A stretch of 64,000 bases of DNA. Origin: a virus. Its lineage: Duplodnaviria; Caudoviricetes. Both the position numbers and the translations under genes were made by a program. Position 1 is the first letter of the stretch. Every line of letters begins with the position of its first letter. Of this stretch, positions 34,891-38,998 are shown piece after piece. The notes beneath the pieces are model-generated. The model was given only the letters and a program-made list of their open reading frames with translations. It was not told the origin of the DNA and did no database searches. The stretch is taken from the IMG/VR virus record IMGVR_UViG_2936514734_000001, positions 32,001 to 96,000 of that record. One strand, given 5' to 3'.

Positions 34891-35084
34891 AACAATTATA
34901 CCAAATTTCCAAAAAAAAATATATAGGTAAAAACATAAAGGAGGAATTTAAACCCTTGATACTAAAGGGTTTATTTGCTTTTGAAATTCTTAAATTTAAA
35001 GATAAATACCCATAAATGAACAATATTATACATAAATATGGTACATTTGTTTAGTAGTTACATTTGAAAATAGGAGAGATGGGA

Positions 35085-35573
35085 ATGAGTTTTCAGTACA
35101 AAATAACAGATCAGAGTTATGATAAGGAATACAAAGTTTGGGAATATGATAAGATGAGAAAGGAATGTGCTCAACCGGGCGTATATATAATTACTGATAT
35201 TGCTCAAGAAATTCTTTATGTCGGTGAAAGTGAAAATGTTGGACAACGTGTTCGTGATCATATAACTGGAACTGAACAATCAAAACGTGGATTTATAAAA
35301 AGAATTTGCAATATAAGGATTTACCTTTTCGGTACATTAAATCGTGATATAACTGACATGAAAATGTGCGAACATTGGGCTAAAAGAGAATATCCACCAC
35401 TCTTTTCAAAAGATAGCATTGAGTACGATGGAGGAGATACTATTGAGTATTTATCTGACAGCTATACAGTCTGGGAGAATTGGCACAAATATTATGCTAC
35501 AGTAGATGACGAAGTAGTAGATGGAAAAGAATATCAAGAAAAACTTAAAGCAGCTAATTTGAAGCTAAAATAA
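35085..35573 (+). CDS. GIY-YIG nuclease family protein
   Basis: PGVYII...LYVGES.NV..R..DH motif. Confidence 0.8.
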   Translation: MSFQYKITDQSYDKEYKVWEYDKMRKECAQPGVYIITDIAQEILYVGESENVGQRVRDHITGTEQSKRGFIKRICNIRIYLFGTLNRDITDMKMCEHWAKREYPPLFSKDSIEYDGGDTIEYLSDSYTVWENWHKYYATVDDEVVDGKEYQEKLKAANLKLK

Positions 35574-36095: not shown

Positions 36096-36410
36096 TTACC
36101 ATTTAGGTCCTTTAGGTAAATCCTCAAGCATCATCATGTGTTTTACTTTAGTCTTAGCATGTTTAACTTCTTTTTCAGCCTTTTCCAGATTGTCAATCTT
36201 TTTAGTAAATGTATCAAAATAGGACCCCATCTCCTGTTGGAAAGCATCCTTCGCGTTACCTGATTTCCACGTAGTTAATTCTTCAACTTTGTTTTTAACA
36301 AGTAACTGTTCGGCTCGCAAATCGGAAATGAGGGAGTCTAACTTGCTACTCAAACGGTCAAGATCATCTAATTCTCTTTTATATTTCTCTAAGTTTTTTT
36401 CATCCATCAT
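36096..36410 (-). CDS. WXG100-like helical partner protein
   Basis: ~100-aa helical hairpin with central WKSG; overlaps lipase gene by 4 nt. Confidence 0.65.
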   Translation of the reverse strand: MMDEKNLEKYKRELDDLDRLSSKLDSLISDLRAEQLLVKNKVEELTTWKSGNAKDAFQQEMGSYFDTFTKKIDNLEKAEKEVKHAKTKVKHMMMLEDLPKGPKW

Positions 36411-37546
36411 TTTAAAACATCAGCCTCCACAAACGATGCCGCTGCAGCATTCAAGTTATTTGCCATTCGAGAGGTATCCTCGGCAAACCAACTACTAAGA
36501 TTATGCGCTTGTCCAATTACATCGTTTACGACACCTTCAGATATTTGAATACCATCCAACATTGTTGCATCTCGTTTAAAGGAAGAACAAAGCTCTTCCA
36601 CCCGTGACACATAGCCTTCCAGTTCACTCGCTAAATTAATTAGATGTTCTGGCATAACATTGATTGTTGCCATTTCTCCAGAAGCATATCTAGGGGACTG
36701 TGCTAAAGACTGACCAGTTAGAATGTTTGTTAGAATAGGGTTGTTTAAATTACCTACACCATCAAATTTGAAGTGTTTCATATTATGATAACTTTCTCCA
36801 GCTAGTGAACCCCAAGCTCTTGAAACAGGGTTGTATCTATTCTTTGAGTTCTCAAGATCAAAGGAAGAACCGATGTAGTATGCGGAACCAATATATCTTT
36901 TATAAGGATTAACAGCTCCAGAACTTATAGAATCTTTAGGGTGAATGTAATTTACGATTTGTTTATCAAACTCACCCTTAACTGCTTTCTCTTTTAGATC
37001 TTTAGGAAGCAAGTTGATAACACTTGGTCCGTTAAACGTAACAGCTTCTACATTATTTTTAGCAGCTGCATAAGATGCAATGGACCCAGCCAAAGAGTGT
37101 CCTGTTAATTTAATATTGTAATCAGGATATTCTTTCTTTACATCTTGAACAAGTTTATCTCCCTGACGAAATTGATTCTTCTGATGGAAATCAACGGACA
37201 ACTTCCCGCTATCATATTCAATGTTTAAACCAAGACGATCAACCTTCTTGCCGCGTACAATATAAGTAGCATCGGTTTTTACGTCCGGCCATGCGCGTCC
37301 TTGTGTAACATTCTCTACTGAGTTGGCTTCAGTACCACGATAAGCAATAACTATATTCTTTTTGTTCTTTAAAACCAAGGCATCAAAACCAGTCTCTGCA
37401 TCATGAACTTTAAACTTTTTACTTTTTATAGTTGTCCATTTTTCATTACCATCTTCATAATGGATAGTATAAGATTTTCTAGGTTTGATATCGTAGGCAA
37501 AGCCACTTAGCTCACGAAACGTTCTATCCCTTACATCTGTAATCAT
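36407..37546 (-). CDS. lipase-family putative T7SS effector with C-terminal WXG-like domain
   Basis: IAYRGT, GHSLAG nucleophile elbow, TFNGP; helical C-terminus ending in FVEAD (FxxxD). Confidence 0.8.
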   Translation of the reverse strand: MITDVRDRTFRELSGFAYDIKPRKSYTIHYEDGNEKWTTIKSKKFKVHDAETGFDALVLKNKKNIVIAYRGTEANSVENVTQGRAWPDVKTDATYIVRGKKVDRLGLNIEYDSGKLSVDFHQKNQFRQGDKLVQDVKKEYPDYNIKLTGHSLAGSIASYAAAKNNVEAVTFNGPSVINLLPKDLKEKAVKGEFDKQIVNYIHPKDSISSGAVNPYKRYIGSAYYIGSSFDLENSKNRYNPVSRAWGSLAGESYHNMKHFKFDGVGNLNNPILTNILTGQSLAQSPRYASGEMATINVMPEHLINLASELEGYVSRVEELCSSFKRDATMLDGIQISEGVVNDVIGQAHNLSSWFAEDTSRMANNLNAAAASFVEADVLK

Positions 37547-37618
37547 AATTGAAGCCTCTCTCCTTATTAGTGTATAATTCTATTATATAAGAATTTCCAA
37601 GAATTTGGAGAGATATGG

Positions 37619-37918
37619 ATGATTAATAAGAAATTGTTTGGCTTTATTTTTATTATTGGAATACTACTTTTAACAGGGTGCGGCAAGGAGGACGACATGG
37701 ATAAGAAAGAGATAGAGAAAACCGCTTCACATGTAGCATCGGAATATATGAAAGTGGAAGAGGATATGGATTTTGTTGTTACTGGTGTAGACTTTTTCGA
37801 TGGTCAAGGAGTAACAACTGTAGCTGTTAATGGACATGAAAAAGGAAAGAAAAAAGAACTAGCAGTTATCATCGATTATGGTGATGATTATAGAGTGCAA
37901 GGGACAGCGGAAAATTAA
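37619..37918 (+). CDS. lipoprotein, probable immunity protein
   Basis: Lipobox LTGC after hydrophobic signal; divergent from lipase. Confidence 0.7.
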   Translation: MINKKLFGFIFIIGILLLTGCGKEDDMDKKEIEKTASHVASEYMKVEEDMDFVVTGVDFFDGQGVTTVAVNGHEKGKKKELAVIIDYGDDYRVQGTAEN

Positions 37919-38092
37919 TAAGAATAAACGAAAAAAGAACCTTTAGATATTGTATCTTTAGGTTCTTTTTTACTAATAAGAGAGCTGAGTTTATACGAGT
38001 TGGATATTGGAGTTTGCCATGTGTTGTAGTACCTTATCAAATATCCATCCATAATTGTATCCAGTTTTTTAAATAATATACATGGTTATGAA

Positions 38093-38254
38093 TCATTGTT
38101 TTTTACAATTATCGCAAGTTACAGGTATGATCTTTCCCGTACTTGTCATCATCGTACCGCTATTATTGTCTAATATAGATAAAGAGGTAATCACTCCGCT
38201 GATATTATTATATCTAACTGAGTCTCCAATATTTAAACCATACCAATCATTCAT
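38093..38254 (-). CDS. small hypothetical protein (53 aa)
   Basis: MNDWYGLNIGDSVRY...VTCDNCKKQ; GAGGTG SD; TGATG coupling to upstream ORF. Confidence 0.6.
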   Translation of the reverse strand: MNDWYGLNIGDSVRYNNISGVITSLSILDNNSGTMMTSTGKIIPVTCDNCKKQ

Positions 38255-38400
38255 CAATACAGTTCACCTCTTTTAAATTTTTTACGACTATAGGAGCCTT
38301 TTCCTTTTTTATTCTTTACTACACGAGTTGAAGCATTAAAAGCCCATGTACCTCGAGTATTAGTCATCTCACCAATTGTTTTTAATTCTCTTTTACTCAT
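38254..38400 (-). CDS. ArfA-like putative ribosome rescue factor (48 aa, not in ORF track)
   Basis: MSKRELKTIGEMTNTRGTWAFNASTRVVKNKKGKGSYSRKKFKRGELY; matches ArfA core RVEKNKKGKGSY.RK. Confidence 0.65.
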   Translation of the reverse strand: MSKRELKTIGEMTNTRGTWAFNASTRVVKNKKGKGSYSRKKFKRGELY

Positions 38401-38751
38401 ACCCAAACCTTCTTTCTTTACTATTAGTTAAATATCTTATATATAATTTCTGCATATCTATTAATAGAGAGTTTAATTACCTTACTTAATTGCTCACAAA
38501 TAAACCATAATAAGAATAAAGGTAACATTGGTATAATTACTAATATTGTTAGTAAAAGAGTTAACCAAGAAATGCTTGGTACACCCATCAAACTTATCAC
38601 CACCAGTTAAGTAAATAGTAAATTACTTTAGTAAATATGTTTTATCATTTACCTAGTTTGTAGAAAAAGTGCGTATTTGTCGTCACCTAGAGTAATACCT
38701 GTAACTTTAAAATTCGAACAGACTTATAATATTTACTTCATTAAGTTGATA

Positions 38752-38897
38752 CAAAGAAAAAGACAGTCGGGGGATGACTGCCTTCTTCAAGTGAGGGAGG
38801 AATGATAATAATGAAGTAAGTAATATTAAGAAAGGTTAAAACAAGTTCGTATTCACGGGGAGTGTGAAGAGATAAAACTTGTGAGGTAACTTACATT
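38752..38897 (-). ncRNA. candidate sRNA with C-rich anti-SD loops
   Basis: Hairpin UUCAC-ACUCCCC-GUGAA, linker UUCCUCCCUC, terminator GGCAGUC-AUCCCCC-GACUGUC plus U-tract. Confidence 0.55.
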
Positions 38898-38998
38898 CTT
38901 AATAAAACCTTTTCATTTATAAAATGCAAACATTAATTTATACAAAATAAAAACGACTACCAAAGAGGGAGCCGCTTGTATTTATTCCTAATATTAAA

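Follow-up and report, generated by a model that had tools for sequence, protein, structure and literature searches.

The locus and its carrier

The window, the whole stretch of 64,000 nucleotides analysed here (positions are given within it), carries on its minus strand an arfA-like open reading frame (ORF) of 147 nt at 38254-38400, 48 codons followed by TGA, which contains TRVVKNKKGKGSYSRK and encodes a basic 48-aa product with 14 K/R and 3 D/E residues. A Shine-Dalgarno-like AGAAGG (38408-38413, minus strand) is spaced 7 nt from the ATG, the sequence AGAAAGAAGG at this site being common to pBtic235-type homologues, and an in-frame TTG at 38406 provides an alternative start that is less likely than the ATG. 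At the 3' end the TGA (38256-38254) overlaps the ATG (38254-38252) of the next ORF in a TGATG stop/start junction (38252-38270, minus strand), and the Shine-Dalgarno sequence GAGGTG (38270-38265) of this second ORF sits within the last codons of the first. The 48-codon ORF with its Shine-Dalgarno sequence and TGATG coupling was found as an earlier sequence-only reading of this DNA had described it, and the accompanying claim of a normal stop codon and no hydrophobic tail held as well: the TGA is present, neither a hydrophobic tail nor an in-ORF terminator was found at 38254-38400, and the gene has no non-stop layout. A hairpin predicted at the TGATG junction was discounted as a terminator, 5 of its 12 pairs being G-U.

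A short, AT-rich ORF might be a chance or dead reading frame, but this one is under purifying selection, has a conserved Shine-Dalgarno sequence, belongs to a family spread over phages and chromosomes, and has a pBtic235 counterpart whose transcript is induced. Over 33 core codons, pS/pN was 0.26/0.01 against the relative L007, 0.43/0.03 against L140, and 0.94/0.14 against a Peribacillus copy; synonymous changes far outnumbered amino-acid changes in comparison with seven relatives, and this strong purifying selection effectively refutes a chance or dead ORF. A six-frame search of the genome found the motif K[KR]GKG[SA]Y a single time, and 20 base-shuffled genomes had none. The ORF at 38254-38400 is a real protein gene.

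The coupled ORF (38093-38254, minus strand) encodes 53 aa with a CxxC near the C-terminus and a weak DUF7101 match (E 0.03). Only close relatives (L007, L008, and L140, which share the TGATG junction) have it behind the arfA-like gene, and it was ruled out as an obligate partner, being absent in L006, pBtic235, and pAD3. On the upstream side, a 59-aa hydrophobic ORF with no Pfam match (38424-38603, minus strand) separates the arfA-like gene from a conserved non-coding unit (38750-38932, minus strand) with a promoter-like 5' end, C-rich hairpin loops, and a CCUCCC stretch. This unit is 150-180 nt long, has a strong terminator (38788-38756), gave no match in an Rfam search, and shows scant covariation (1 of 29 pairs). 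It is common to pBtic235-type elements, large B. cereus-group plasmids, and Peribacillus, Cytobacillus, and Metabacillus chromosomes, sometimes preceding other cargo and usually the arfA-like gene. Many arfA-like genes have it about 20-400 nt on their 5' side: about 20-25 nt separate its end from the Shine-Dalgarno sequence in pBtic235, pAD3, L006, Metabacillus, and Cytobacillus, and the distance to the gene is about 330-400 nt where, as here, a small membrane gene intervenes. All four strong matches to the unit in the Peribacillus family sit upstream of an arfA-like gene or its remnant. A role as an arfA-specific attenuator was not established, since the unit also occurs without the gene (pBWB401, pH3-552, pN497-ZHONG) and many copies of the gene occur without the unit; it may be an sRNA that feeds the gene by read-through, or an attenuator.

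A hairpin flanked by A and T runs (37928-37973) lies between a convergent lipoprotein gene and the arfA-like operon and is, judged by its sequence, likely a bidirectional terminator. Positions 36096-37918 hold a Lipase_3 protein with a C-terminal EspC/WXG-like region, an overlapping WXG100-like gene, and a divergent lipoprotein gene, which together resemble a cargo module that encodes a type VII-secreted interbacterial lipase toxin and immunity to it. A stand-alone GIY-YIG nuclease-domain gene (35064-35573, plus strand) directly follows the structural module.

The carrier, a virus record of 239,374 bp, has 18 tRNA calls, and its major capsid protein shares 85-86% identity with the capsid proteins of 235-240 kb B. 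thuringiensis and Cytobacillus plasmids. The 235-kb plasmids with matching capsid are the jumbo plasmid prophage pBtic235 (PMC9700832), and the carrier is a pBtic235-type jumbo phage-plasmid; its capsid, size, and tRNA cluster bear out the placement of the gene on a phage-borne, Bacillus-type element. The pBtic235-type arfA-like copies lie at the end of the structural module near a 415-aa gene, and the gene is close to this same 415-aa gene in pBtic235, pAD3, a Gottfriedia contig, and L007, with the cargo around it varying. Elsewhere the carrier encodes an RtcB RNA ligase (G000 C1:168646-169854), a CCA/poly(A)-polymerase-family enzyme with an HD domain (G000 C1:193864-195387), and a cluster of 17 tRNA calls (G000 C1:148442-151987), which we describe as a tRNA repair and supply kit. 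The region at G000 C1:97293-99448 resembles, by N-terminal sequences, the PRPP synthetase/nicotinamide phosphoribosyltransferase pair of PJN02.

Extent of the resemblance to ArfA

The 48-aa product comprises a TIGEMTxxRxxW N-half (residues 8-24) and an ArfA-like beta-strand/channel tail (residues 25-46). An ArfA-family HMM search, proposed as a check in the sequence-only reading, matched Pfam ArfA (PF03889) above its curated cut-off (26.6 vs 25.5 bits; E 4e-6) over residues 25-41 only, and the PHROG 2701 profile matched peptide residues 6-45 over its positions 5-40 of 46 (E 1.4e-8); an NCBIfam search with the 48-aa peptide gave no match. HH-align against a profile of 19 gammaproteobacterial ArfA sequences paired residues 25-46 with ArfA 27-48 (probability 97.5%, E 5.5e-12). 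The six PDB matches of the peptide were all ArfA chains, each weak (E 0.06-0.28), 13 of 16 residues being identical, in order, to ArfA 27-42, and no BrfA chain appeared among the PDB matches up to E 10. The HH-aligned region covers the ArfA Q27-E30 strand, which augments the RF2 beta-sheet, and the tail beyond residue 40, which fills the mRNA channel (PMC8012679). No equivalents of A18, the short helix (15-24), or F25, which activate and select RF2 in ArfA (PMC8012679), are identifiable in the peptide because HH-align detected no homology between ArfA residues 1-26 and the peptide N-half (probability 0.1%, E 0.59).

Within a 42-sequence family alignment, of which the pBtic235 copy was not part, W19 is invariant and R16, K31, K32, Y37, and R39 are near-invariant. 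The pBtic235 copy (L058 2977-3126) is without the conserved W, a proline-rich middle replacing W..N..TRVV with KKGKGSY.RK kept, and may be functionally altered. The Lys-His motif that contacts 16S U534 in ArfA and BrfA, and to which the published likeness of those two factors is confined, is missing in the 38254-38400 copy, which has KFK; KHK is present in Twort, Kayvirus, and other family members. The Twort, Kayvirus, PJN02, and WH1 homologues lack GKGS, so the expected conservation of KKGKGSY stood for K..Y.RK, which these homologues keep, and failed for GKGS. An ArfA-like identity likewise stands for the tail, but not for the RF2-activating N-half or the Lys-His motif, and with these two lacking the peptide is not a full ArfA; non-stop control, a further feature of ArfA membership, was not found in this copy either. 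The likeness to ArfA lies in the tail, and the peptide probably acts as ArfA does.

Were the peptide a basic nucleic-acid binder that resembles ArfA through convergent low-complexity lysine content, this would account for a Pfam match that spans 17 residues and lies 1.1 bits above the cut-off, an AlphaFold model that is mostly coil and of low confidence (pLDDT 64, pTM 0.15), and the absence of GKGS from some phage homologues. The ordered identities to ArfA 27-42 argue against such convergence, however, as do the homologues without GKGS, which keep Y.RK and in some cases KHK as in ArfA, and the non-stop layout of the relatives described below would be left unexplained. We therefore consider convergence very unlikely.

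Distribution, gene layout, and expression of the family

Members of the family, PHROG 2701, are found in Twort/Kayvirus and Bacillus phages and here and there in Bacillaceae chromosomes. Relatives were found, at a loose cut-off, in 92 phage records, mostly of Staphylococcus Twortvirinae plus Bacillus phages; 13 plasmids also carry relatives. The gene's occurrence is patchy: 17 of 67 genomes of the Peribacillus family have it, as do 6 of 401 genomes sampled over the whole order, and a search of four related large phages or phage-plasmids gave no copy; WH1 has a diverged one. The Twort and Kayvirus homologues (L060 2447-2626, L062 2486-2626) are set among tail-morphogenesis genes, closely following the tail tube gene with its intron ORF. 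A protein tree of the family (30 rows, 42 columns; row L142 mis-extracted) had one well-supported branch. Distant matches with the tail alone in common (L023, L025-26, L029, L032-52) were left out of the family, and an IMG/VR pattern match (L131) was rejected as chance. A second tail-bearing peptide family from Clostridia-type MAGs and gut viruses (L023, L025, L026, L029, L032-L040, L042, L044-L048) has another N-half, KKxGEELQxxLxFRxRG, and ends mostly in KKGE or RGE plus stop.

The description of the gene as unannotated is right for the open-reading-frame track used, but the exact 48-aa protein is present in NCBI/nr and RefSeq calls relatives 'alternative ribosome rescue factor ArfA', with the name arfA given to the pBtic235 (WP_003310347.1) and pAD3 (WP_207169179.1) proteins; Twort ORF219 and Kayvirus A3R ORF076 also belong to the family. 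Names across the family are automatic (IEA) or 'hypothetical', the ESM Atlas matches are 'hypothetical' clusters only (10-19% PF03889), and a phage ArfA annotation also appears in GenBank records. The literature searched, which covered little of the subscription journals, yielded no functional study of a phage ArfA; nor did the search turn up biochemical data on any family member or a description of Bacillaceae chromosomal copies with the non-stop layout.

A terminator-like hairpin with a U-tract (-13 to -26 kcal/mol) covers the end of the ORF in 18 of the 22 chromosomal copies, compared with 0 of 9 phage copies, 38254-38400 included. In eight of the 18, a stop codon falls within the hairpin loop or at the base of the stem. 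No stop precedes the U-tract in 10 of the 22, three of which are degenerate (L020, L024, L078) and one borderline (L066), and L145 adds one; the layout was read from sequence alone, and since the 22 copies are kin they do not represent 22 independent events. The hairpins are of two types, the first pairing the GSY codons with the ORF end and the second beginning just past the GSY codons, and within the second type the stop and read-through versions differ by one or two loop bases. The terminator is inside the ORF with no earlier stop in L016, L070, L013, L073, L081, L082, and L145; in their sister copies L011, L014, and L071 the hairpin loop contains a stop codon. Peribacillus sp. NPDC096622 and Bacillus sp. 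JJ722 are among the bacteria with non-stop copies. Several of the chromosomal genes have ordinary metabolic neighbours (biotin operon, MFS, nucleoside hydrolase, RodA-like).

In B. subtilis, brfA is kept under trans-translation control by an in-ORF terminator (PMC6881298), and arfA is controlled by a similar stem-loop (PMC8012679). A rescue role for the family gains support from this layout in the chromosomal relatives, and the non-stop chromosomal arfA-like genes are candidate tmRNA-controlled rescue factors. Since the chromosomal relatives have the layout and the phage copies do not, the suggestion that the phage gene escapes tmRNA control gains support as well. With some bacterial copies stop-less like back-up rescue genes and the phage copies provided with a stop, the 38254-38400 gene probably encodes a rescue factor for stalled ribosomes.

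Published transcriptomics for the pBtic235 copy (HIS92_RS25745) gave a log2FC of +4.17 upon mitomycin induction (padj 1.4e-4, about 18-fold) and -3.03 under gp7 repression of induction (PMC9700832 Suppl. Data 1, 5), with the listed neighbours at +0.7 and -1.0 upon induction (PMC9700832). This diverged copy behaves as a lytic-phase gene and not as one served by read-through from its neighbours. To call expression 'constitutive' would be wrong: the tmRNA brake is missing, yet transcription of the pBtic235 copy is controlled, being induced on prophage induction and lowered under gp7.

Proposed role and known systems

We propose that the peptide rescues ribosomes in a release-factor-dependent manner, escapes tmRNA control, and is produced during lytic growth, a reading we hold to be reasonably likely; a Firmicutes-type member of the ArfA-tail peptides is the best explanation of what it appears to be. 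The gene would be transcribed in the lytic programme, for which the diverged pBtic235 copy is the sole basis, and its mRNA retains the stop codon, which should spare the peptide from tmRNA tagging. By analogy with ArfA structures, the basic KKGKGSY.RK tail would enter the mRNA channel left empty when ribosomes stall on broken or non-stop mRNA, and the RVVK segment would contribute an extra beta-strand to a release factor at its domain II/IV; RF2 is the most likely partner. The release factor would have to come from the host because no RF-1-family or SmpB matches were found in the carrier genome. In the weakest step, the family-specific N-half (R16, W19) would stabilise the open release factor so that the nascent chain is freed. 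The benefit would lie in ribosomes being kept free while phage proteins are made.

Were the N-half to activate no release factor, the bound tail would plug the channel without release, leaving the peptide to act as a competitor of tmRNA-SmpB or BrfA or to keep idle ribosomes parked, for instance so as to shield phage proteins from SsrA tagging. The homology to ArfA is indeed confined to the channel-binding half, and a synthetic SmpB-tail peptide inhibits tmRNA; moreover, the N-half decides activity, given that ArfA A18T binds and recruits RF2 without activating it (PMC8012679). BrfA nevertheless activates RF2 by an unrelated N-terminus (PMC6881298), and the chromosomal non-stop layout suits a back-up rescue factor but would be hard to understand in a tmRNA inhibitor. 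A channel plug is accordingly unlikely in our estimate, though not negligible.

A dedicated counter-defence function against mRNA-cleaving toxins or tRNA-targeting abortive infection, as the sequence-only reading had envisaged, would be compatible with the rescue mechanism. RtcB, the CCA-type enzyme, and 18 tRNA calls reside in the same genome, and the PJN02 homologue (L061 2453-5077) lies directly before PRPP synthetase and nicotinamide phosphoribosyltransferase genes, a pair that we take to be an NAD-rebuilding counter-defence module. The 38254-38400 gene, however, has the lipase/WXG100 cargo module and small ORFs as neighbours and lies a long way from the tRNA and RtcB genes, and the Twort and Kayvirus homologues are found among tail genes. 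ArfA, furthermore, acts only where no more than 3 nucleotides (<=3) extend past the P site (PMC8012679), so tRNA-starved ribosomes would not be rescued unless the mRNA is cut. The gene context thus gives the counter-defence proposal no support, tRNA loss alone would not be countered, and we judge a dedicated function of this kind unlikely.

Extending the rescue reading to the family as a whole, we tentatively suggest, as a possible though doubtful scenario, a second Gram-positive release-factor-dependent rescue system besides BrfA, built from the ArfA tail and an activating N-half of its own. Such a system would move between phages and Bacillaceae chromosomes and switch between tmRNA-controlled forms (in-ORF terminator) and unrestrained forms (stop), in some lineages by one or two hairpin bases; Kayviruses would bring the factor into S. 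aureus, and phages might thereby withstand translation-targeting defences. With members in Bacillus phage-plasmids, staphylococcal Twort/Kayviruses, and Bacillaceae chromosomes, the family allows a test of whether ribosome rescue is phage-supplied and bears on how the ArfA tail adapts to a Firmicutes release factor, and B. subtilis ssrA/brfA genetics together with the inducible pBtic235 prophage make it tractable. What is new is the stop-less layout in Bacillaceae chromosomal copies; the arfA names of relatives were known before, and the 38254-38400 copy itself adds no unique feature to relatives already auto-named arfA.

Close known counterparts include pBtic235 and pAD3 arfA, Twort ORF219, and Kayvirus A3R ORF076, which share the PHROG 2701 family and a stop codon; the 38254-38400 copy differs in that a membrane ORF precedes it and a coupled ORF follows. 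Among other phages, ArfA is annotated in Citromicrobium phage RXM (PMC8953757) and in pelagiphage HTVC027P, of which gp30 is highly expressed early and late (PMC12753301). These are likewise phage-encoded PF03889 peptides proposed to support phage translation, but their hosts are proteobacterial and they are known from annotation and expression only.

ArfA has been described as limited to beta- and gammaproteobacteria and BrfA as the sole Gram-positive factor, with none in S. aureus (PMC8012679), and ArfA and BrfA each function solely with the RF2 of their own species (PMC6881298). BrfA (YqkK, B. subtilis; PMC6881298) is, like the peptide, a small basic Bacillaceae peptide; it has an in-ORF terminator, as do the chromosomal relatives of the peptide, and it recruits RF2, which for the peptide is a proposal. 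BrfA differs in its length of 62-71 aa and its helical N-terminus, compared with 48 aa and no BrfA PDB match for the peptide. With ArfA (YhdL; PF03889; PDB 5MGP, 5MDV, 5U4I, 5H5U) the peptide shares the RV.KNKKGKGSY.RK strand and tail at a distance from the start offset by 2, a length that fits the 46-48 modelled residues, and chromosomal relatives that are non-stop, whereas its N-half is unrelated, it has no Lys-His motif and no hydrophobic tail, its stop is normal, and it comes from a Bacillaceae-type phage-plasmid rather than from beta- or gammaproteobacteria.
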